DNA of 64,000 nucleotides from Sphyrna mokarran (lineage: Eukaryota): positions 102,238,001-102,302,000 of the forward strand of contig JAGIQG010000009.1 in NCBI GenBank assembly GCA_024679065.1, in the 5' to 3' direction. Position numbers and translations under genes: made by a program. Under the pieces are notes generated by a model. That model saw only the letters and a list, made by a program, of their open reading frames with translations. It was not told the origin of the DNA and searched no databases. Below, one piece after another: positions 11,399-61,383 of this stretch (within the stretch, counting starts at the first letter, position 1; each line of letters begins with the position of its first letter).

Positions 11399-12310
11399 AT
11401 GGCAGTGCGATGTACCTCCTGTGGGATGTTTGAGGTGAGGGGCACTGGTAGTGTCCCAGCTGATTACACCTGCCAGAGGTGCATCCAGTTCCACCTCCTT
11501 GAGGACCGTGTTAGGGACCTGGAGCTGGAACTGGTGGAACTAAGAATTATTAGGGAAGCAGAGATGGCTGTTGATAAAAGCTACAGGGAGATAGTTACTC
11601 CTAAATGTGATACACAGGTGACTGTTAGAAGGGTGTAAGAAGCAGTCAGTGCAGAGTTCCCCTGAGGCTGTTCCTCTACGCAATAAGTACTCTGCTTTGG
11701 ATGCTGTTGGGGATGTAGATACAATCAGGGTAAGCTATGGAGTACAGGTCTCGGGAGTTGAGCTTGTCCTTGATGCTCAGGTGGGAAGGGGGAAGAAAAG
11801 ATCTGGATTAGTGATTGGGGACTCCCTAGTTAAGGGGATAGATAGGAGGGTCTGTGAGAAGGAGCGGGACTCGCGGCTGGTATGTTGCCTCCCGGGCGCT
11901 GGGGTCAGTGATATCTCTGACCGAGTGTTTGGGATCCTTAAGGGGGAGGGGAACCAGCCCCAAGTTGTGGTGCATGTAGGTACCCATGACGTAGGTAGGA
12001 AAAGGGATGGGGATATAAAGCAGAAATTCAGAGAGTTAGGGTGGAAACTTAGGTCTAAAACTAACGGAGTGGTTATCTCTGGTTTGTTACCTGTGCCGCA
12101 GGATAGCATAGAAAAGAATAGGGAGAGAGAACATTTGAACTCGTAGCTAAAGGGATGGTGCAGGAGGGAAGGGTTCAGGTATTTGGACAATTGGGGCTCA
12201 TTCTGGGGAAGGTGGGACCTCTACAAGAGGGATGGTCTGCACCTGAACTGGAGAGGTACCAATATCTTGGGAGGTAAATTTACCAGTGCTATTCGGGCGG
12301 GTTTAAACTG
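11399..12310 (+). pseudogene. CR1 ORF1 (zinc finger/leucine zipper + SGNH esterase), disrupted
   Basis: MAVRCTSCGM...CQRC..LEDRVRDLELEL; VIGDSLV, CLPGA, VHVGTHD, DGLHLN; stop/frameshift near 11638 and stop at 12144. Confidence 0.9.
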
Positions 12311-12360
12311 ATTCGGGGGGGGATGGGAACCTGAATTGTTGTGCCAGTATACAGGAGGAT

Positions 12361-15300
12361 GTGAATAGGGAGGTCACGGATAAGGTTTCTAGGTCGCAGC
12401 AGTATAGTGGCAAACGGGAGGGTGGTTTGAAGTGTGTATACGTTAATGCGAGGAGCATACGCAATAAGGTGGATGAACTTGCAGCCTGGATTGGTGCTTG
12501 GGACTTCGATGTTGTGGCCATTTCAGAGACGAGGATAGAGCAGGGGCAGGAATGGTTGTTGCAGGTTCCGGGGTTCAGATGTTTCAGTCAGAGCAGAGGT
12601 GGTGGTAGAAGAGGGGGAGGAGTGGCATTGTTAGTTAAGGACAGCATTACGGTGGCAGAAAAGACGTTTGATGTGGACTTGTCTGCTGAGGTAGTGGGGG
12701 CTGAGATTAGAAACAAGAAAGGAGAGGTCACACTGTTGGGAGTTTTTTATAGGCCTCCAAAAACTTCCAGAGAAGTAGAGGAAGGAATTGCAAAGTTGAT
12801 CCTGGATAGATGTGAAAGTAACAGGGTAGTTGTAATGGGGGACTTTAACTTTTCTAATATCGATCGGAAAAGCTATAGTTCAAGTACGTTAAAGAGGTCA
12901 GTTTTTGTTCAATGTGTGCAGGAAGGGTTCATGACTCAGTATGTAGATAGAACATAGAACATAGAACATAGAACATTACAGCACAGAACAGGCCCTTCGG
13001 CCTTCGATGTTGCGCCGACCAATATAAAAAGCAATGCCCCTCCAAACTAAACCATTCCCTTCTCTTCCATATACTTATCAACTAACCTCTTAAAACGCCA
13101 CCAAACTTGGCGCATCTACAACTGCTGCAGGCAGGGCATTCCACTCCCGAACCACCCTTTGGGTAAAGAACCTGCCTCTGATATCCGTCCTATAACTATC
13201 ACCCCTTAATTTAAAGCTGTGTCCCCTCGTGCTAGCTTTTTCCATCCTAGGAAAAAGGCTATCACTGTCCACCTATACTGTTATATACACACTATATATA
13301 TATACTGTTTCATGACTCAGTATGTAGACAGGCCAACAAGAGGTGAGGCAATATTGGATTTGGTACTGGGTAATGAACCAGACCAGGTGTTAGACTTGGA
13401 GGTGGGTGAGCACTTTGGTGATAGTGACCACAATTCGGTTACATTTACCTTCGTGATGGAAAGGGATGGGCACATACCGAACAACAGTAGTTATAGCTGG
13501 GGGAAAGGTAATTATGAGGCTATTAGGAGAGATTTAGGATGTGTAGGGTGGAGCAGGAAATTGCAGGGGTTGGGGACATCTGAAATGTGGAGCTTATTTA
13601 AGGAACAGCTTCTGCATGTCCTTAATGAATATTTACCTGCCAGGCAGGAAGGAAGTGGTTGAGTGAGGGAACCATGGTGTACTAGGGAAGTTGAATCTCT
13701 GGTGAAGAGGAAGAAGGAGGCTTATATAATGATGAGACGTGAAGGCTCAGTTAGGGCAATGGAGAGCTATAAATCAGCCAGGAAGGGGCTAAAGAGGGAG
13801 TTGAGAAGAGCTAGAAGAGGACACGAGAAGACTTTGGCGGATAGGATTAAGGAGAATCCTAAAGCTTTTTACAGGTATATAAATAATAAAAGATTGGTTA
13901 GGGCAAGATTAGGGCTAGTCAGAGATAGCAGTGGGAAGTTGTGCGTGGAGCCTGAGGAGATAGGAGAGACACTGAATGAGTATTTTTCGTCAGTATTCAC
14001 GCATGAGAAAGACAATGTTGTCGGGGAGAATACTGCGATACCAGGTTGTAGACTGGGCAGGATTGAGGTTCATAAGGAGGAGGTGTTAGCGAATCTTGAG
14101 GGTATGAAAATTGATAAGTCCCCTAGGCCAGATGGGATTTACCCTAGGATTCTCTGGGAGGCTAGAGAGGAGATTGCAGAGCCTTTGGCTTTGATCTTCA
14201 TGTCGTCGTTGGCTACAGGTATAGTGCCGGAAGACTGGAGGATGGCAAATGTTGTCCTTTGTTCAAAAAGGGGAGTAGGGACCATCCTGGAAATTATAGA
14301 CCGGTGAGCCTGACTTCTGTTGTGGGCAAGGTCTTGGAAAGAATTATAAGGGATAGGATTTATAAGCACCTAGAGAGAAATAAATTGATTAGGGATAGTC
14401 AGCACGGTTTTGTGAAGGGTAGGTCATGCCTCACAAACCTTATTGAGTTTTTTGAGGAGGTGACCAAAGAGGTAGATAAGGGTAAGGCAGTTGATGTAGT
14501 GTATATGGATTTTAGCAAAGCGTTTGATAAGGTTCCCCATGGTAGGCTACTGCAGAAGGTGCAGATGCATGGGATTGAAGGTGATTTAGCAGTTTGGATT
14601 AGGAATTGGCTAGCTGATAGAAGACAGAGGGTGGTGGTTGATGGGAAATATTCAACCTGGAGTGCAGTTACAAGTGGTGTACCTCAAGGATCTGTTTTGG
14701 GGCCACTGCTGTTTGTCATTTTTATAAATGACCTAGATGAGGGTGTAGAGGGTTGGATTAGTAAATTTGCTGACGATACCAAAGTGGGGGGAGTTGTAGA
14801 CAGCGAGGATGGATGTTACAGTTTGCAGAGGGACATAGATAGGTTGCAGAGCTGGGCCGTGAGGTGGCAAATGGAATTCAATACGGATAAGTGTGAGGTG
14901 ATTCACTTTGGTAGGAATAACAGGCATATGAAATATAGGGCTAATGGAAGGACCCTTAATAGTGTTGTCGAGCAGAGGGATCTTGGGGTACAAGTACATA
15001 GCTCTTTGAAAGTTGGCACCCAGGTTGATAAAGTTGTTAAGAAGGCGTACGGTGTGTTAGCTTTTATTGGTAGAGGGATTGAATTTAGGAGCCGTGAGGT
15101 TATGTTACAACTGTACAAAACTCTGGTGCGGCCGCACTTGAGTATTGCGTACAGTTCTGGTCGCCGCATTATAAGAAAGATGTGGAAGCATTGGAAAGGG
15201 TGCAGAGGAGGTTTACCAGGATGTTGCCTGGTATGGTGGGAAGGCCTTATGAGGAAAGGCTGAGGGACCTGAGGTTATTTTCATTAGAGAGAAGGTTACG

Positions 15301-15571
15301 CAGTGACCTAATTGAGGCATATAAGATAATCAAGGGATTGGATAGGATGGATAGTGAGAGCCTTTTTCCTCGGATGGTGATGACCAACACGAGGGGACAT
15401 AACTTTAAATTAAGAGGTGGTAGTTATAGGACGGATGTCAGAGGCAGGTTCTTTACACAGAGGGTGGTGAGGGCGTGGAATGCCCTGCCTGCAGCAGTTG
15501 TGGACTCACCTACTTTGGGGGCATTCAAATGTTCGGTGGATAGGCATATGGATGACATTGAAATAGTTTAG
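12361..15571 (+). pseudogene. CR1 ORF2 (endonuclease + reverse transcriptase), disrupted
   Basis: Successive ORFs from 12361, 13219, 13663, 14259 and 15182 join into an ORF2 once the 12948-13308 insertion and one TSD copy are removed. Confidence 0.93.
12948..13308 (-). mobile_element. 5'-truncated CR1 nested antisense in ORF2, with 20-bp TSD
   Basis: (tagaaca)n tail; TSD ttcatgactcagtatgtaga at 12928-12947 and 13309-13328; nearly the same sequence as 60750-61065. Confidence 0.92.
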
Positions 15572-16109
15572 GTTAGAGGGTCCACTGGCCGGTGCAACAT
15601 CGAGGGCCGAAGAGCCTGTACTGCGCTGTAATGTTCTATGTTCTATATATATCGTATTCCAAGCGCGGCCTTAGCAATGTCTTGTACAACTTCAACAAGA
15701 TGTCCCAACTCCTGTATTCAAAAAGGCCAAGCATGCTGAATGCCTCCTTCACCACTTTGTCCACCTGGGACTCCATTTTCATGAAGCAATACGTATCCCT
15801 ACATCTCTGTTCTGTAACTCTCACTAATGCCCTATCATTAACTGAGCAAGTTCAACCCTGGTTCCATCTACCAAAATGCATCACCTTGCATTTATCTAAA
15901 TTAAACTCCATCTGCCATTCATCAGCCAGTGGCCCAATTGATCAAGAACCCATTGCAATTGGAGATAACCTTCTTCACTGTCCACTAAGCCACCAATCTT
16001 GGTGTCATCTGCAAACTTACTAATCATGCTGCCTATATTTTTATCCAAATCATTAGTATAAATGATAAATAACAGTGGACCCAGCACCAATCCCTGAGGC
16101 ACATCACTG

Positions 16110-22476: not shown

Positions 22477-24320
22477 CATCATGCAAACCAGCCTCCCATC
22501 CATTGACTCTGTCTACACTTCCTGCTGCCTCAGCAAAGGAGCTTAGCATAATCAAGGATCCTCAGTTTAAACCTATGCCCTCTGGTCCTTGACACCTCTG
22601 TGGTAGTCATGATATGGAGATACTGGCGTCAGACTGGGGCACCACAATAAGAAGTCTCACAACACCAGGTTAAAGTCCAACAGGTTTATTTGTAGCAATC
22701 ACCAGATGACAAATGGGAAAGCCCCAAAAGATAGTGTTGTGAGACTTCTTACTTTGACACTTCTGCCATGGCAAAACAATTCTTACAGTCTGCTCTATCT
22801 ACCCCTTTCATAAAATTCTTAAATTCTCCTTCAGCCTCCTCTGCTCTTAAGAAAAAAGCCCAGTCTATCTAATCTCTCCTCGTAGCTGAAACTTTTCATC
22901 CCATCAAACATCCTGATTAATGTCTTCTGCATTCTACCCAGTCCTTCTGGATTTAAGTGTGGTGACCAGAACTGCACACAGTATTCCAGCCGTGGCCTAA
23001 CCAACGTTTTATAAAGTTGCAACAAGACCTCATCGTTTCTTGGCCTTTTGGCTAAGAGCAAGCATCAGCTCAAGCCCAAGATGGGGTACAATATGTTATC
23101 TATCTTGGGGACAATGAATTAGAATTTGAATTTATTTATTGGCACAAACAAGAAAATAGATTTGGATCAATTCAGTCCACTTTCAGCATTGGCTTTGTAA
23201 CTTTAAGAATGGAATAAAAAAAGCATAAACCCTGCTCCTATATTCAATGCTGGTATACGACTGGTCACAGGCTTCCAATCACTAAACCAAACCTCCACCC
23301 CCTTTGCCCCTTATTATTGAGCCAATTTTGGATTCAATTTATCAAATTATGTTGGATCTCTTGGCATCTAGCCCTTTGGACCAGTCTTCCATGTGGGATC
23401 TTACAACATCTCATCTTCTGATTGGTCCATTTAAAGCACATCAATTGTGCAACCTCATTAATGTATTTAGTTCAATTTTCAAAAACACTCAATCAATTTA
23501 GTTAGACAAGATAAGTGCTGACTATCCTTGATTAAGCCCTGCCTTTCCGAATGTTAATTAATCATCACCCTAAGAATTTTTTCTAATAATTTCTCTGCCA
23601 CTGATGGCTTGTAATTACCTAGTTATCCCTGCTGCCATGCTAGAATAAAGGTACCACATTGGCTATCTTCCAGTCATCTGGCACTTCACCTGCAAACATT
23701 TAAATATTTCCATCAATGTCCCTACAATCTCTAACTTGCCTTCCATATCAGTCTGTGAAACATCTCATCAGGCCTGAGGGAATTTATGCATCTTTATGCC
23801 TGCTAAAATATTTGATACCTTTTCCTTAGGAATCTTAATACACTGTAAAACTTCACTTTCCTGACTGAAATCTCTAACTGCTATATCTTTCTCCTTCATG
23901 AATACAGATGAAAAACATTCATTAAGACCTCTACTTGCACTCAGATTGTCCCTTTGGTATCCAAAGGATCCCAGTCTCTTTGGTCTGCCTCTTCCTTAAT
24001 CTTATCTGTCAATGATATTTTATGTCTCCTCTTCACCCTTTAATTTTTTTTTAAGTACCCAGGTTACTCTACTGCTGAAGGACTTTTCGCACTTCATGCC
24101 TACCATATTCTTTCTTTATCAGATCTCAATATCCCTTGACGACTAGAGTCCTGCTTGTGTATATTTAAGGCTGAGATGGATAGATTTTTGATCACTAAGG
24201 GAATATAGGTTACGGGGAAAAGATAGGCAAGTGAGCGTAAGGAATATTGGATCAACCGCAATCCTATTGAATGGCAGAGCAGGCTCGAGGGGTCAAACAA
24301 CTTCCTCCTGCTCCCATTTC
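22477..24320. mobile_element. Mixed old repeats: Rex1/Babar fragment (~22477-22560), Penelope hairpin (~22610-22755), CR1 fragments
   Basis: agcctcccatccattgactctgtctacac; aagaagtctcacaacac...gtgttgtgagacttctt; LYKTLVRPRLEYCVQFWSP. Confidence 0.65.
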
Positions 24321-24750: not shown

Positions 24751-24829
24751 CTGAAATCGAGGCTGTTCGAAGGTGAAGAAAAGGGAGAATGAATATCAAC
24801 TGTGCAGAAAAACAGCCGCACACTTCCAT
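24751..24829 (-). CDS. Ig-superfamily receptor, exon 1 (signal peptide) MEVCGCFSAQLIFILPFLHLRTASIS
   Basis: ATG in strong context (aacATGg); hydrophobic core; donor CAG|gtaaat in phase 1, joining exon 2 in frame (G+CA = Ala). Not in the ORF track. Confidence 0.75.
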
Positions 24830-34060: not shown

Positions 34061-34984
34061 ACTCTGTTCCGGAGAACAATGAGTGTACTTGTGGCTGGCA
34101 AAGAAAAAGTCTCAATGAAAGATGACCTTTTTTTTTTGCCTTGTTATAATAATAATAATGTTATTTACATTTAGTTTGCACTCCTGTCTTTAACATTTAA
34201 CCACCCAACAATTGGACATTGAACAATTGTTACCAATCAAAGCATCGAATACAAAATGAATGATGCTGATTGGCCACTAGATGGAGATCAGTGTCTGAGG
34301 TGCTGATGTACGGTGGGGGGGGTGTTTATTATTTTATTTGTTATTGTAACAAGTGGGTTTACATAATATCCAGTTGAGGGGTGCAGGGTGGGTGGGTTGT
34401 TGGAGGAAAGTTGGGAGAGGAAAGTCCTGAAGTGACATCCTAATGTGTTGAAATGAATTTTCTGAGGCCCTGTGGCTTGTATCACGGTCAGGTGCTGGGA
34501 AGGTCAGAATTTGAAAATCCAATGGCGTAAATCGTGTTTTCCGGTTTTGAGAGCACACTACGCCATTCCCACAGACGGAAAAGTAAATTCTCCATCAGTG
34601 TACCTGAACAGGCACCAGAATGTGGCGACTAAGGGATTTTCACAATAACCTCATTACGGCATTAATGTGAATTTATCCACTTTGGCAGGAAGTATAGAAA
34701 TGCAGTATAATGTTTAAATGTAGGGAGTCGGCAGAACTTTATGGTACAGAGGGATCTGTACATTCTAGTATCCAAATCAGAAATAGTTAGCATGCAGGTT
34801 TGGTAAATTAACGGAAGGAAAATGAAGTGTTTTTGTTAATTCCCCTTTCAATAAGTGGGAGTGGAAATGCGGGTCTTAGTGTGGGTGAGAAAATGGGTCT
34901 GATATCCTGGCCTCAGTTTAATCTCATCCAAAAATGCATGTCCAACAGTGCAACTCTCCACAGATCGCAAATGCTTGACATGGC

Positions 34985-36130
34985 AGCACTCCCTCACGAA
35001 TGACCCTCTGACAATGCTGCATTCCCTCCGTACTGAACTTCTAACTGACTGTGCAGCACTCACTCAGTACTGACCCTCTGACAGTGCAGCACTCCCTCAG
35101 TGCTGACCATCTGACTGTGCAGTACTCCCTCAGTACTGACCCTCTGACTGACTGTGCAGCACTCCCTCAGTACTGACCCTCTGACTGACTGTGCAGCACT
35201 CCCTCAGTACTGACCCTCTGACTGACTGTGCAGCACTCCCTCAGTACTGACCCTCTGACTGACTGTGCAGCACTCCCTCAGTACTGACCCTCTGACTGAC
35301 TGTGCAGCACTCCCTCAGTACTGACCCTCTGACTGACTGTGCAGCACTCCCTCAGTACTGACCCTCTGACTGACTGTGCAGCACTCCCTCAGTACTGACC
35401 CTCTGACTGACTGTGCAGCACTCCCTCAGTACTGACCCTCTGACTGACTGTGCAGCACTCCCTCAGTACTGACCCTCTGACTGACTGTGCAGCACTCCCT
35501 CAGTACTGACCCTCTGACTGACTGTGCAGCACTCCCTCAGTACTGACCCTCTGACTGACTGTGCAGCACTCCCTCAGTACTGACCCTCTGACTGACTGTG
35601 CAGCACTCCCTCAGTACTGACCCTCTGACTGACTGTGCAGCACTCCCTCAGTACTGACCCTCTGACTGACTGTGCAGCACTCCCTCAGTACTGACCCTCT
35701 GACTGACTGTGCAGCACTCCCTCAGTACTGACCCTCTGACAGTGCAGCACTCCCTCAGTACTGACCCTCTGACTGTGCAGCACTCCCTCAGTACTGACCC
35801 TCTGACTGACTGTGCAGCACTCCCTCAGTACTGACCCTCTGACTGACTGTGCAGCACTCCCTCAGTACTGACCCTCTGACTGACTGTGCAGCACTCCCTC
35901 AGTGCTGACCCTCTAACTGACAGTGCAGCACTCCCTCAGTACTAACCCTCTGACAGTGCGGCACTCCATCAGTACTAACCCTCTGACAGTGCGGCACTCC
36001 CTCAGTACTAACCCTCTGACAGTGCGGCACTCCCTCAGTACTAACCCTCTGACAGTGCGGCACTCCCTCAGTACTAACCCTCTGACTGACTGTGCAGCTC
36101 TCCCTCAGTACTGACCCTCTGACAGTGCAG
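34985..36130. repeat. Minisatellite, 37-bp unit ctgactgactgtgcagcactccctcagtactgaccct with 33-bp variants (~30 units)
   Basis: Exact 37-bp periodicity from ~35140 to 35740; 33-bp variant ctgacagtgcggcactccctcagtactaaccct at the right end. Confidence 0.97.
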
Positions 36131-48304: not shown

Positions 48305-51300
48305 AGAATAAAGAACAAAGGGCAAAGAACAAAACAGCACGGGAAACAGGCCCTTCGGCTCAACGAGCCCGCGCTGCCACCCCGATGTTCCCACCTCTAT
48401 CTGTGATCCCTGTCTGTGTTTATAGATCTATGGATTAAAAACCAAATTTGAGACAATTTAGGGAGAATTTGTTTTGCAAATTAGCCTAAGAGCATCTCTT
48501 TGGGACGTGGGAGGAAACCGGAGCACCCGGAGAAAACCCACGCAAGCACGGGGAGAATGCGCAAACTCACATAGACACAGGCCCAAATCCATGTATCTGC
48601 ACAGCACAGCGATAGTCACTGAGCTGTCGTGTTGCCCATCAGATGGTCCAGATCAAGTGTACACTAACGACGTGAAGCACTAGGATACTCTCGAAAAAGA
48701 TCCAAGAGCAGTTCTCTCACGACCCATCGCGTGTATGTCCCTCATTAGACAACAAGGTGAACCAAAGCACCTGTAGGATAAAAACAAGTACATCAATATC
48801 ATCATCTATTTACACACTTCCCAGAGACTCCCAAGGCTCATGATACCTATTTTAAATCAGTTTTCTATACCCCTCCATTCCCATTCTGTTCATGTGCCCA
48901 TCTAAGTATTTCTTAAATAACTCCAGAGTACCTGCCTCCACCACTTTACTTGGCAGCGCATTCCATACCCCCACCACCCTCTGTGTGAAAAAACTCCCTC
49001 CAGCATCCAAATTATACCTTACCCCCCTCACCCTAAGCCCGTGACCCCTCGTGTTATTTGAGTCCATCCTAGGAAAAAGCTTAACCCTGTTTACTCTATC
49101 TATCCCCTTCATAATCTTGTACACCTCTATCAGATTTCCTCTAAGTCTATGTCTTTCTAAGGAAAACAGTCCCAATTTGCCTAATCTCTCCTCGTAACTC
49201 AGACCTTCCATACCAGGCAGCGTCCTGGTAAACCTCCTCTGCACTCTCTCCAGAGTCTACATGTCCTTCCGGTAGTAAGGCGACCAGAATTGGACGCAGT
49301 ATTCCAAATGAGGTCTAACCAGCGTTTTATACAACTGCAACATTAAAGGCCAGCTCCTGTACTCTATACCCCTTCATATAAAGGCTAACATACTAGATGA
49401 CAGAACTTGATAAAGCTCTAAAAGATACCAGAAGTGGTAAGGCACCCGGGCAAGACAGTATTCCATCAGATGTGCTGAAACAAGGTGGTCCTGCTCTGAA
49501 AAGTGAACTGCTAAACATTTACAATGCTTGTTGGCAAAACCAGTGCCTCCCTCAGGACTACAAAGATGCGTTGATTGTCACAATCTATAAGAAGAAAGGC
49601 GACCAAAGTGAGTGCAAAAACCACCGAGGCATGGCGCTTCTTTCTGTAGCTGGCAAGATTATGGCGAAGATCCTGCTCAATCGACTCAAAATTATTTCAG
49701 AAAATGTCCTCCCTGAGAGCCAATGTGGCTTTAGGATTGGAAGAGCAACTACAGATATGATTTTTACCTTGACGCAACTCCAGGAGAAGGCGGCAGAACA
49801 GCAACAACCATTGTACATTGCCTTTGTCGATTTTTCATAAGCATTCGATACGGTGGATAGAGAAACCTTCTGGAGAGTGCTCAAAATTTATGGATGTCCA
49901 GATAGACTGCTCAAGATGATCACACTGTTTCATGAGAATATGTATGGCAAAGTAACTATTGAAGGAGATATCAGCGAAGTCTTCAGCATCAACCACGGGG
50001 TAAAGCAGGGATGCGTACTTGCTCCAACTTTGTTCACGCTATATCTTGCTGCAGTATTGGAAACAATGGGCCAAAATCTGGACAAAGGTGTGTACATTAG
50101 GACTCGCTCAGATGGAAAATTGTTCAACCTCTCAAGACTCAAAGCCTCAACCAAGACGAGAAAGATATGTGTCAGAGAACTTCTGTATGCAGATGACTTA
50201 GCCCTCGTTGCCACTGATCCAAATGTGATTCAAGAAATTGTAGACCAATTCTCATCTGCTGCCACTGTTTTTGGCCTAAGAATCAATGCCTCCAAAACTG
50301 AACTCCTGTACCAGCCTCCGCCTCTGTGTAATGAAACCCAATCACCAGTCATAAAGATAAGTGGGCTAGCGCTGAAAAACACTGAGTCCTTCACTTACTT
50401 AGGAAGCGCTGTAACCAGCACCAACTTATCGGACCTGGAAATAGAAAGGAGGATTCAATCAGCAACTAAAGCTTTTGGTGCCTTGCAGAAGCGACTTTGG
50501 TCCCGCCATGACATTAAAATGTCAACCAAGGTCAAAGTGTATAATACAGCCGTTCTACCATCTCTACTTTATTCAACAGAAACGATGACATTGTACCGGA
50601 AGCATATCAAGAAACTAACCAAGATACAACTCAGACACTTGCGACAAATATTAAACATCAATTGGCAAGAGATGGTTCCTGATGTGGAGGTATTTAAATG
50701 AGCTGGAACGGTCAGCGCAGAATCGCTCGTCACAGCCTCTCAGTTGCAGTGGACTGGCCACGTCATAAGAATGAACGACGATCGTTTGCCCAAAGCCGTC
50801 TTCTATGGCGAGCTACATGAAGGAAATAGAAACATGGTGGACAGAAGCAGCGTTACAAAGATGTGCTCAAGCGCCATATGAAGAACACTAACGTGGATGT
50901 CAACACCTGGGAGAAGGATGCTTTGGACAGAAGAAATTGGCAATGCATTGTCAAGAAGACAATCCCACTCATCGAGAAAAAAAGGCAGGAAAAATATGAA
51001 GCAGACCATGAACGTAGACATTTTGTTACAAATCAGACAAATCACAGTTGCAACCCATGTGGGAGACAATGCCGATCCAATGCAAGCCTTATAACACACC
51101 AACGTGCCTGCGGAATCTAAACTTCCAACACAGTCAACATCGAAATCGATGAATGGCCGAAGGGGGAAGGGGAGCATACTATATGCTTTCTTCACAACCT
51201 TCTCACTTGCTCTGCCACCTTCAGAGACTTGTTCACCTGCATCCGCAGGTCCCCCTGCGTTTCTATACTCTTAATAGGTCTACGCTTTAACATATACCTC

Positions 51301-58270: not shown

Positions 58271-58958
58271 GACAGACCATTTAACCTCACATCTGTCATA
58301 GGAAAATGCTGCAATCTATTATTAAGGCAGTAGGGCACTTAGAAACTTTTAATCTAATCAGACAGCGTCAACAGTCACGTTTAAATGATTTATTTCAGAT
58401 CTCCGAAGGAGTAACAGATAAAGGGGAACTTGTGCATTTATTAAACTTGAGTGACCCCTTCATACATGTTGTCTATATGATTGTATGTACTGTCTTATCA
58501 AACAGCTTTGGGAATGGAAGGAGGGAGTGATGCTAGTACGTACACGAGGGTGGGCACTTCTCATTTATTCAGTACTTAACTGAGGCACTTTTTTATTGTG
58601 TGTGAATACAAAAGTAAATTATGAAATTTAAGTGAATTATGAATGAAGGCATTTTCAGTAATATTTTTTCATCTAACGGGAGTTAACCTTCCCTAATCTC
58701 ACTCCCATCATTAAATGGGGAGATATCTCATTAGAAGCTCTCTCATTACAAGCTTCTTACGAATTGATTGCTGAGTTCAGGGAAGCATTTTCGGTACGTT
58801 TTTGTTCCTCCTAGCCTTGAGCGCCAAACCTCAGAATTTCAGATCTATATTCACTGGAGGGAACGCCAGGTGGCGTGACCGTCGTGCCTTTATATATCAA
58901 AAAACGATTCCTGATCTATCTAACCCTTTAGTTGAGGCAAAGTCTGGAGAAGAGTGCA

Positions 58959-59418
58959 ATGCAAAGGGGCGCTGCCAACGAAATTATGCCGCTGCTTCCG
59001 TGTGAGTATCGTTTAGTTGTCCAGTCACTGTGTCCTGATGATAAACCTAGAAGGATCATCGATCAGCTGAATCTGAGCAATGTGGAGGTCCAGTACTTAC
59101 GATTCAGTCCGGCAGACTTGCAGCAATCCTATCTGCTCTGGCGTTTCTTGTGGGCCACTTGGAGAGGGATTCAAGCTCTATTCTGCAGCCTGTGCAGCTG
59201 CTGTCTTCCTCTCTGGCGCACTCTGGCCAGATGTTGCCCCTTGTCCTGCAGATACCATGTATTCCAAAGTGTCCGAGGTGTACTGAAATATTGCCCATGG
59301 CGGGGGTACCAGGATCTGCGTGTTGTCTACCACTCAGTTCTGGCCGGAAGACGGAACCTTACAGACGTGAACGATTCTTTATACGGCAGCATTTTAAAAT
59401 ATCTACTGCGGAAATATG
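58959..59418 (+). CDS. Uncharacterised protein with TIR-like alpha/beta topology, coding exon 1 (153 aa)
   Basis: Open non-repeat frame MQRGAANE...YHSVLAGRRNLTDVNDSLYGSILKYLLRKY; donor G|gtaagt at 59418/59419; possible upstream acceptor ccctttag| at 58931. Confidence 0.8.
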
Positions 59419-59822
59419 GTAAGTGCGAGATTGTGTCCTACTAATAGACGGAGAACTTTATTCTGACACTGTAATAATGTAATTATTAATCTGTTCTCCA
59501 TGTAATCCTTATTGAGAACTCTGTAACCCTCCCCCTCTCTGGTCTGTACTCTCTTTATAAAACTCTCCACTCCCTCGCTCAGTGAGGGTCAGAAAGTCAC
59601 TTGGTCGACCTCTTTTTAGTCAACTGTCCTGATGTCTCCTTCAAGTTGGTGTTTATTGGTCTTCTGCATGGTAGATTGGAGTTCTTCAGCACCACTGGGT
59701 TACTCAAACAGTTGATTGGAAAATCATTATTTATCTCACACGATTGTTCATTCCTTCATTGACCCTGATGGAATTTCAGAAAATTCTGCAACTAATATTT
59801 TTAATGATGGATTTATTCTCAG

Positions 59823-60043
59823 GTCGATCATCCCTGATCTTTATTGTTGATGACGAAAAGAAAGGTGACAAAGTAAAGGAAGAAATTAAAGCTGAACAGC
59901 CAACGGTAATTGAATGCTGCAACAGAATATTTGTTTTTGAGAAAGAAAATCCAAGTGACCCACCGACGGCTTGGAACAGACAGGAAATTCGCAAATTAAC
60001 TGAATATGTGAATCATTTTCTGCATGAAAACAATCAGGTTTAG
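59823..60043 (+). CDS. Same gene, coding exon 2 (GRSSLIFIVDD...HENNQV*)
   Basis: Acceptor tttattctcag| at 59822; phase-1 junction in frame; total CDS 681 nt = 226 aa plus stop. Confidence 0.8.
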
Positions 60044-60317
60044 CCTCCCATCCATTGACTCTGTCTACACTTCTTGCTGTCTCGGAAAAGCAGCCACCAT
60101 AATTAAGGAACCCATGCACCCCCAACATTCTGCCATCCACCTTCTTCCGTCTGGAACAAAATACAAAAGTTTGAGATCAAGTACCAACCAACTCAAGAAC
60201 AGCTCCTTCCCTGCTGCCATCAGACTTCTGAATGGGCCTACCTTGCATTAAGCTGATCTTTCTCTACACCGTAGCTATAACTGTAACACTATATGTTACA
60301 TATATGTTACATATTGC

Positions 60318-61065
60318 AGGAACAATAAATGTGTAGAGTATAGGGCTAATGGTAGGGCTCTTAATAGTGTTGAGGAACAGAAGGATCTTGGTGTATGTGT
60401 CAATAGATCCCTGAAAGTAGGCAGTCAAGTGGATAAAGTTGTTAAGAAGGCATATGGAGTCTTAGCTTTTATTGGTAGGGGGATTGAATTTAGGAGCCGC
60501 AGCATCATGTTGCAACTGTACAAAACTCTAGTGCGGCCGCACTTGGAGTATTGTGTGCAGTTCTGGTCCCCACATTATAAGAAAGATGTGGAGGCATTGG
60601 AGAGGGTACAGAGGAGGTTTACCAGGATGTTGCCTGGTATGGAGGGCAGGTCCTATGAAGAGACGTTGAAGGATTTGAGGTTGTTTTCGTTAGAAAGGAG
60701 GCGGCTAAGAGGGGATCTTATTGAAGCATATAAGATGATTAGAGGTTTAGATAGGGTGGACAGTGATAGCCTTTTTCCTAGGATGGAGAAAGCTAGCACG
60801 AGGGGACACAGCTTTAAATTAAGGGGTATGAGTTATAGGACGGATATCAGAGGTAGGTTCTTTACTCAAAGAGTGATTAGGGAGTGGAATGCCCTGCCTG
60901 CAGCTGTTGTAGATGCGCCAAGTTTGGTGGCGTTTAAGAGGTTAATTGATAAGTATATGGAAGAGAAGGGAATGGTTTAGTTTGGAGGGGCATTGCTTTT
61001 TATTTTGGTCGGCACAACATCGAAGGCCGAAGGGTCTGTTCTGTGCTGTATTGTTCTATGTTCTA
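60318..61065 (+). mobile_element. Young 5'-truncated CR1
   Basis: Uninterrupted ORF2 C-terminus 60429-60980; tail ttgttctatgttcta. Confidence 0.92.
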
Positions 61066-61144
61066 TATTTTGTACTCTCTCCTTTCCTTCTCTATGTACA
61101 GTATGCTTTTTCTACACGGTGCGCAAGAAATAAAACTTTTCAAG

Positions 61145-61383
61145 GAGTGCAATGTGAAGTGACACTCCTGATGAAATTATGCCGTTCTCTCAGTGTGATG
61201 ATTGTTTAATTGTCCAGTCACTATATCCTTGTGAGAAACCTGAAAGGATTATAAATTAGTTGAGTCTGGGCAATATGGAGATCCAGTACTTACAGTTCAG
61301 TCCTGCAGAGTCGCAGCAATCCTACCCACTCTGGAGCTTCTCGTGGGCCACCTAGAGAGGGATTTAGACTCTATTCTGCTGCC
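61145..61383 (+). pseudogene. Pseudogenised fragment paralogous to exon 1 of the TIR-like gene
   Basis: Gap-free alignment to 58952-59190, about 79% identity by hand count (51/239 mismatches); four in-frame stops. Confidence 0.9.

Follow-up and report, generated by a model that had tools for sequence, protein, structure and literature searches.

An uncharacterized gene of sharks, chimaeras, and lungfish encoding a probable TIR-like domain with an inserted, putative membrane anchor

A 64,000-nucleotide stretch of the genome of the shark Sphyrna mokarran (GenBank assembly GCA_024679065.1, contig JAGIQG010000009.1, positions 102,238,001 to 102,302,000; hereafter, the window) contains a real gene without prior study that is common to sharks, chimaeras, and lungfish. 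Its product is a small protein with a predicted five-strand core that is a probable but not proven member of the TIR superfamily, interrupted by a Cys- and Trp-rich segment and devoid of a glutamate that is almost invariant in a related family of frog proteins. Our preferred reading, held at somewhat less than even confidence, is that the protein is a membrane-tethered, TIR-like adaptor or brake that has lost NAD+-cleaving (NADase) activity, with a pocket that still binds a ligand or a partner. Its frog relatives, in turn, could represent a hitherto unrecognized group of immune enzymes in vertebrates.

A two-exon gene shared by sharks, chimaeras, and lungfish

The gene is on the forward strand. 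Exon 1 (58959..59418) encodes amino acids (aa) 1–153, which, from the ortholog alignment and a structural model, comprise strand A, helix A, strand B, the insert, strand C, a long C-C loop, and helix C. Exon 2 (59823..60043) encodes aa 154–226, comprising strand D with an invariant Asp-Asp pair, helix D, strand E, and helix E, followed by a TAG stop codon. The exons are separated by a phase 1 intron of 404 nt (59419..59822) with a GTAAGT...AG structure. When joined, they encode 226 aa with zero internal stops, i.e., the clean two-exon open reading frame proposed in the original prediction. Support for the splice sites comes from protein rather than RNA data, because the spliced product aligns to an annotated shark protein across the junction.

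The original prediction expected conserved orthologs, and a database search recovered them at full length. A complete phmmer scan with exon 1 as the query returned 12 matches, three of which are single-domain proteins with the same insert: LOC132832507 from Hemiscyllium ocellatum (epaulette shark), LOC103172281 from Callorhinchus milii (elephant shark, a chimaera), and LOC122798903 from Protopterus annectens (lungfish). The spliced protein is 47.3%, 38.6%, and 29.5% identical to these three proteins, respectively, and aligns with them through the splice junction. The Hemiscyllium alignment covers 222 columns (pairwise E 1e-60), with exon 2 contributing 35 identical residues out of 63. All three full-length orthologs are annotated as “uncharacterized”. 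The other nine phmmer matches are longer proteins (674–1662 aa) that have two to six copies of the domain and are free of the insert.

The amphibian family that the original prediction pointed to does exist. A profile search matched 183 proteins of 79–417 aa; counts given below for these matches rest on the 120 that were listed, 112 of them named. All 112 named proteins are from frogs, including single-domain members in Xenopus such as X. tropicalis LOC100489315, and nearly all are called uncharacterized or hypothetical. Among the matches listed, seven of nine Discoglossus entries and all six Pelobates fuscus entries lie on a single chromosome-sized contig each, which suggests that the frog members are arranged in gene clusters. 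A quick tree of the C-terminal half of the domain (94 of 153 copies after thinning, 91 columns) places the four insert-bearing proteins on one side of a branch with Shimodaira–Hasegawa-like approximate likelihood ratio (SH-aLRT) support of 96, within which the lungfish, the chimaera, and the two sharks follow one another as the species branch. Because the tree is unrooted, the direction of change is inferred rather than shown. We infer that the ancestor of jawed vertebrates already had the gene.

Several family members have additional features. P0006 (1175 aa) combines a kinesin motor domain (E 4e-40) with three family domains, which may reflect either a genuine fusion or an erroneous joining in the gene model. 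In P0007, P0008, P0010, P0012, and P0013, three to four tandem copies precede a long, charged, coiled-coil-like tail, and the first copy forms a subgroup of its own in four of these proteins. Nine others (P0014, P0040, P0070, P0092, P0096, P0110, P0111, P0130, and P0134) have many predicted transmembrane segments around the family domain. Wider kin are hinted at by ESM Atlas leads obtained with residues 30–200 of P0009, namely two clusters, one from echinoderms (0.85) and the other of chordate DUF4630 proteins (0.80). With exon 1 as the query, the best ESM Atlas score was 0.77, with recognition below threshold, and a word-index search yielded nine candidates, none of which was confirmed. No prokaryotic relative was found in GTDB, where zero of 26 pattern matches were confirmed, or in plasmids, where three records scored only E 4.

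Fold, TIR membership, and the missing glutamate

Structural models were examined for two relatives, a frog single-domain protein and the epaulette shark ortholog, and not for the window protein itself. The AlphaFold model of the frog protein, built with 88 sequences, has a predicted local distance difference test score (pLDDT) of 85.8 and five strands that alternate with helices. The epaulette shark model has the same five strands, with block pLDDT values of 83–95; these include all five strands named in the original prediction. Both models align end to end with TIR, receiver, and flavodoxin chains. These models settle the fold class, a five-strand, flavodoxin-like alpha/beta core, but do not by themselves decide the superfamily. 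The five-strand, flavodoxin-like order read by the original prediction is supported for the core; TIR membership is only probable, with tied fold matches and no match to a TIR hidden Markov model (HMM).

Among structures in Foldseek, the frog model matches TIR-STING first (E 3.5e-5), IRGQ second (E 1.4e-4), and then MilB, with the BCAP TIR domain at rank 9. In VIA-align, the RRS1 TIR domain ranks first (Z 11.4, root-mean-square deviation [rmsd] 3.5, 134 residues aligned), and TIR-STING has a Z of 10.6 (rmsd 3.6, 126 aligned). Across 88 frog domains, nine columns never vary. They comprise the Arg that follows strand A, the Tyr-His pair closing strand C, then Gly, Asn, Tyr, and Glu in the loop and helix beyond it, an Asp after strand D, and a Gln. 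The window protein retains seven of the nine, the two exceptions being the Arg (Leu24) and the Glu (Ile145). Five of the retained residues (Y124, H125, G130, N133, and Y142) are invariant columns within a signature block at 59328..59384 (aa 124–142), which takes in the C-terminal end of strand C together with the C-C loop and is the putative ligand pocket. The Ser/Thr found at the end of strand C in TIR domains is also present, as S126 in the window protein and as Thr in 27 and Ser in 6 of 33 aligned copies. The C-C loop of the frog model is long and conserved, with pLDDT under 50 for residues 62–70, a segment that we compared with the beta-hairpin extension of CAP12.

It is the glutamate that speaks for TIR membership. 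More than 70% of TIR domains carry a Glu between strands C and D that is needed for NADase activity (excerpts of PMC7075850). A pattern search for frog-type copies found 149, of which 148 have a Glu in this interval; in the frog model, it lies in the first turn of a helix (residues 74–84). In the insert-bearing proteins, it is absent from all four (Ile, Phe, Ile, and Tyr); in the window protein, the codon is that of Ile145 (59391..59393). The Arg after strand A is likewise replaced, by Leu, in three of these four proteins. No Glu-bearing paralog was found in shark or lungfish among the matches listed. The original prediction had read this helix as lacking the catalytic Glu of TIR NADases, and that residue is indeed missing there.

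Where the Glu is retained, its surroundings may point to one particular group of TIR domains. Six frog-type words from the junction of helix C and strand D match 15 rows in the table of a TIR atlas, 11 of which are PF10137, positioned after the catalytic helix (excerpts of PMC13142454). When the frog profile was compared with a CAP12 profile using hhalign, Glu aligned on Glu with E 0.0013 and a probability of 18.5%; the score was above that of the reversed profile, and none of 60 block-shuffles scored as high. The CAP12 profile consists of 91 domains out of 120 loci fetched by motif, with all six loci checked being PF10137. The match is partly circular, because the CAP12 set was fetched with the very motif being compared.

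Several observations weigh against TIR membership. First, the fold matches are tied: the frog model also matches a receiver (Z 10.9), a deoxyribosyltransferase (10.4), and IRGQ (10.4), and the shark ortholog model ranks IRGQ first (Z 10.5, rmsd 3.4, 133 aligned), has a Z of 8.6 to TIR-STING, and gives zero Foldseek matches at E <= 0.001. Second, TIR C-C loops typically have an aromatic residue that is missing here; the position is A129 in the window protein and Arg in 80 of 88 frog rows; the CAP12 consensus likewise has no aromatic there. Third, the CAP12 match weakens once the domain is divided: the N-terminal half, which excludes the motif, has E 0.042, a score that 3 of 60 shuffles equaled, and the C-terminal part has E 0.07. 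Fourth, there was no Pfam match to TIR, TIR_2, TIR_3, SEFIR, ThsB, or CAP12 for the two exons, the 12 phmmer matches, or 14 frog proteins; the two exons drew no Pfam match of any kind. For the 88 frog members, no TIR-clan Pfam family was among the 25 of 102 families listed, and no TIR-named PADLOC or NCBIfam family was among the top 25 listed. One protein, P0064, has the UniRef name “TIR domain-containing”, yet it has no Pfam match. Lastly, some inactive TIR domains also carry the Glu (excerpts of PMC7075850). Weighing these points, we regard TIR ancestry as likely, though well short of certain.

Other assignments were tried and rejected. Scans of the 88 frog members against PADLOC, NCBIfam, and Pfam gave only scattered weak or coiled-coil matches, and matches of the KAP NTPase and AAA_16 families to the strand ending in Asp-Asp were set aside for want of a Walker A motif. 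Sequence searches of the PDB had best E values of 0.32, 0.51, and 1.5, all of which were discarded as chance. Response-regulator receivers carry their phospho-acceptor Asp where strand 3 ends, a place taken in this family by Tyr-His-Thr/Ser.

Two alternative readings of the core have more to recommend them, although we consider both improbable. The first is that the core is a degenerate GTPase-derived domain, resembling the N-terminal domain of IRGQ or DUF4630, in a membrane adaptor for trafficking or autophagy, with the likeness to TIR being convergent. The high rank of IRGQ for both models fits this reading, as do the many GTPase domains with Z of 8–10 and the chordate DUF4630 cluster, the last as a lead only. 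However, a Walker A motif occurs in one of the 88 frog cores, a G3 motif in none, and a G4-like motif in four, and neither Walker A nor G4 occurs in any of the four insert-bearing proteins. Sequence searches of the PDB gave no match under E 0.3. A GTPase origin leaves unexplained both the invariant Glu of helix C and the occurrence of the same junction words in PF10137. If this reading is right, the family is still an unannotated vertebrate domain family.

The second is that the protein is a membrane-bound, active enzyme in which the retained His, Asn, Tyr, and Asp-Asp serve another chemistry, as a nucleotide N-glycosidase or a cyclic-ADP-ribose (cADPR) hydrolase of the Raw kind. The retention of seven of nine frog-invariant columns favors it, and the leading structural matches include deoxyribosyltransferases and MilB. 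Deoxyribosyltransferases, however, also need glutamates. Raw, a TIR-fold enzyme that hydrolyzes cADPR and not NAD, sets a precedent for different chemistry but requires glutamates too (excerpts of PMC13455253). The replacement of both the Glu and the strand-A Arg in the insert-bearing proteins counts against any such activity.

The insert and a possible mechanism

The insert is at 59112..59309 (aa 52–117). The original prediction placed a Cys/Trp-rich segment between strands 2 and 3 at aa 58–114; its presence there holds up, with eight Cys in aa 58–114, five of six Trp in aa 61–114, and no insert in frogs, while the boundaries are better set at aa 52–117. In the epaulette shark model, three extra helices (52–88, 93–105, and 107–119; pLDDT 55–78) lie between these strands. 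The insert is 66–78 aa long in the four insert-bearing proteins, as opposed to 11–13 aa in the same columns of 24 frog rows. In the window protein, this predicted helical segment is basic (8 Lys/Arg vs 1 Asp/Glu) and has five Trp; across the four proteins, there are 8–10 Lys/Arg vs 1–5 Asp/Glu and 4–6 Trp. Its best interfacial 18-mer scores −6.5 to −8.7, whereas the 88 frog cores reach −5.9 at best, with a median of −1.5. Peak hydropathy over 19 residues is 1.28–1.56, so there is no clear transmembrane helix. Judged by composition, the insert fits helices that lie in a membrane surface, and it is a putative anchor of that kind.

Cysteines number eight in the window insert, 12 in Hemiscyllium, four in Callorhinchus, and five in Protopterus. 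Eight Cys in 66 aa has a binomial P of 1.4e-4, taking a 2.3% background. Given these sequences, S-acylation is likely in sharks and less clear elsewhere. Three points count against this picture of the insert. Cys clustering is strong only in the two sharks (P 0.09 in the chimaera, 0.03 in the lungfish), Cys positions are mostly unconserved, with a single invariant Cys column in all four proteins, and the epaulette shark model, with its placement of the insert, rests on the chosen alignment: among 221 random subsets, strand B preceded the insert in only 14, while strand A was aligned in 154. Here, hhalign spanned just the C-terminal 83 columns, half-domain hhalign tests were not significant, and three further alignments, which were not folded, put the frog N-terminal half in inconsistent positions.

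It is also conceivable, though quite unlikely in our view, that the core is TIR-like and the insert is a helical subdomain that binds protein or metal and anchors nothing to a membrane. In line with this, no 19-residue segment exceeds a hydropathy of 1.6, the shark proteins have CxxC-like and CC spacings, and between the two sharks the insert is as conserved (30/58 identical) as the core (19/35 and 19/36). Against it, the number and spacing of Cys vary across the four proteins, with the one invariant column noted above, whereas all four retain their abundance of Trp, a net positive charge, and interfacial hydrophobicity, a combination that suits a membrane surface better than a metal site.

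Membrane anchors appear to recur in the family, because 35 of the 112 named frog proteins (30 of 87 clusters) among the matches listed have a hydrophobic 19-mer above 1.8, i.e., putative transmembrane segments, and one, P0068 from Xenopus laevis, ends in a multi-Cys CaaX box. Some of the hydrophobic segments in frog proteins may be signal peptides or gene-model errors.

The membrane-tethered adaptor or brake that we favor would work as follows. The small, intracellular protein would consist of one divergent TIR-superfamily domain whose motif is closest to the CAP12/Pycsar/TIR-STING type and whose catalytic glutamate has been lost. First, the basic, Trp/Cys-rich helices that follow strand B, in the region of the B-B loop, would sit in the membrane leaflet that faces the cytosol, and in sharks they would probably be S-acylated. 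Second, the kept pocket residues (H125, N133, Y142, D163-D164, and Q179) would bind a nucleotide or a partner surface and cleave no NAD+. Third, the tethered protein would act as an adaptor or brake in innate-immune or stress signaling. The immune role is suggested by the fold class and by the clustered, variable expansion in frogs. In the sister lineage, which expanded in frogs and kept the Glu, the proteins would probably be enzymes that cleave NAD+ or a nucleotide. A broader version of this scheme, which we put forward tentatively and with well under even confidence, is that the family is an undescribed, jawed-vertebrate branch of bacterial-type, CAP12/TIR-STING-like TIRs, comprising a large, clustered set of Glu-bearing immune enzymes in frogs that cleave NAD+ or a nucleotide, with tandem domains and varied anchors, and a pseudo-enzyme of cartilaginous fish and lungfish with a lipid anchor in the B-B loop.

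The locus, and comparison with known systems

The original prediction placed the gene in non-repeat DNA, which does not wholly hold: positions 58952–59190 have a decayed partial copy, 239 nt long and 78.7% identical, at 61145..61383 on the same strand, ~2 kb downstream of the gene. The copy corresponds to the 5′ half of exon 1, has four stops in 76 codons, and directly follows a piece of a long interspersed nuclear element (LINE); no copy of exon 2 was found in the window. The partial copy is an old duplicate, because it has kept eight outgroup residues that the intact gene has changed. At 75 sites, the gene keeps 13 outgroup residues and the copy eight (P = 0.38). In simulations with substitutions only, the frame was still open in 87 of 2000 runs at 11% neutral divergence and in 439 of 2000 at 5%. 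That the gene is itself a non-functional or unexpressed relic, with a frame open by chance, is suggested by its decayed neighbor and the similar outgroup counts, but is very improbable given two open exons, canonical splice sites, three full-length annotated orthologs, and the counts of open frames in the simulations, the copy having gathered its four stops.

Upstream, a TATA-like element at 58889..58897 (forward strand, ~65 nt before the ATG) is a candidate promoter, from a motif scan without a chance control. Around the gene and this element, the CpG observed/expected ratio is 0.62–0.70, vs 0.28 for the whole window. No strict NF-kB site or interferon-stimulated response element is present in the 1 kb upstream of the gene, and Rfam has no match anywhere in the window. 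Downstream, a repeat fragment at 60042–60112 (86% identical to 22490–22561) starts within the stop codon, so the 3′ end of the gene may derive from a mobile element. Within-window repeats cover about a third of the window, and many are LINE-type reverse-transcriptase frames (11622–16023, 49397–50701, 60252–61069, and others), with one element near full length and having an OSK-like first frame. A 37-bp tandem satellite (~32 copies, 92% matches) occupies 34983–36123.

Another gene encodes an Ig-superfamily protein on the reverse strand, with a candidate leader exon at 24829–24751, a V-set exon at ~7295–6994, and an I-set/C2 exon at ~2620–2340, and runs off toward the start of the window. It is head-to-head with the TIR-like gene, and its candidate leader exon is 34.1 kb from the ATG. 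The original prediction noted such a gene about 34 kb away, which is correct; nothing in the analysis links the two. A functional connection was not adopted, since its sole basis is 34 kb of repeat-rich distance.

No account of the shark/frog family was found in the literature, in a search that mostly left subscription papers outside its scope, and a search with six family locus identifiers found no papers. In the table of the 2026 TIR atlas built on EukProt, whose sequences end at 400 residues, six family words match one unrelated row, and frogs, sharks, and vertebrates are not mentioned in the excerpted main text (PMC13142454). EukProt itself holds two family members. SARM1 was described in 2026 as the sole enzymatically active animal TIR known until Raw, a separate TIR-fold enzyme that is absent from vertebrates (excerpts of PMC13455253). 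Should the frog proteins prove to cleave NAD+ or a related nucleotide, they would be a further vertebrate TIR enzyme family beside SARM1, one expanded in amphibians, whose immune genetics bears on the declines caused by chytrid and ranavirus. The near-invariant Glu of the frog copies, which the original prediction did not note, is, in this respect, a larger lead than the shark gene itself, and its presence makes a simple enzyme test possible. The shark-type gene, if our reading is true, would show how such a domain was disarmed and tethered, with the anchor placed inside the domain.

How does the protein compare with known systems? Nucleoside 2-deoxyribosyltransferase/MilB belongs to the same fold class (Z 10.4, rmsd 3.1, 113 aligned), although the alignment is shorter, identity is 8%, and there is no HMM match. 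In nucleoside 2-deoxyribosyltransferase, a catalytic Glu occupies the equivalent helix. The N-terminal, GTPase-like domain of IRGQ (PDB 8q6q) is also from vertebrates and aligns with both models (Z 10.4–10.5 over 133 residues), but identity is 10–13% and the P-loop, G3, and G4 motifs are missing here. Raw/OLRN-1 resembles the present family in being a group of animal TIR-fold proteins that long went unnoticed, and it shares tandem domains with the frog members; unlike that family, Raw/OLRN-1 is reported to be absent from vertebrates, and the window protein has a single domain and no Glu (excerpts of PMC13455253).

CAP12/Pycsar/TIR-STING (PF10137) shares the five-strand fold (Z 10.6 between TIR-STING and the frog model), a long C-C loop, and, for the frog form, the Glu and the following helix C/strand D junction in the same register. 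It differs in that there is no HMM match, the profile match is weak, and ~8 extra residues separate the R-x-N motif from the Glu; moreover, the window protein has no Glu, carries its 66-aa insert behind strand B, and lacks a STING or other sensor domain. The amoebal CAP12-type TirC, from TirBCD, is targeted to the endoplasmic reticulum by its own helix (excerpts of PMC13142454), much as the shark-type insert may target its domain to a membrane. The non-enzymatic, membrane-tethered animal TIR adaptors TIRAP/MAL, TRAM, and BCAP are comparable as TIR-like proteins with a lipid-binding or acylated segment, as is probable for the small shark-type protein. In TIRAP and TRAM, the membrane anchors, lipid-binding or acylated, are N-terminal. 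Here, by contrast, the putative anchor is inside the domain, and there is neither HMM similarity nor a known receptor partner. TIRAP, together with MyD88, rarely has the Glu (excerpts of PMC7075850).
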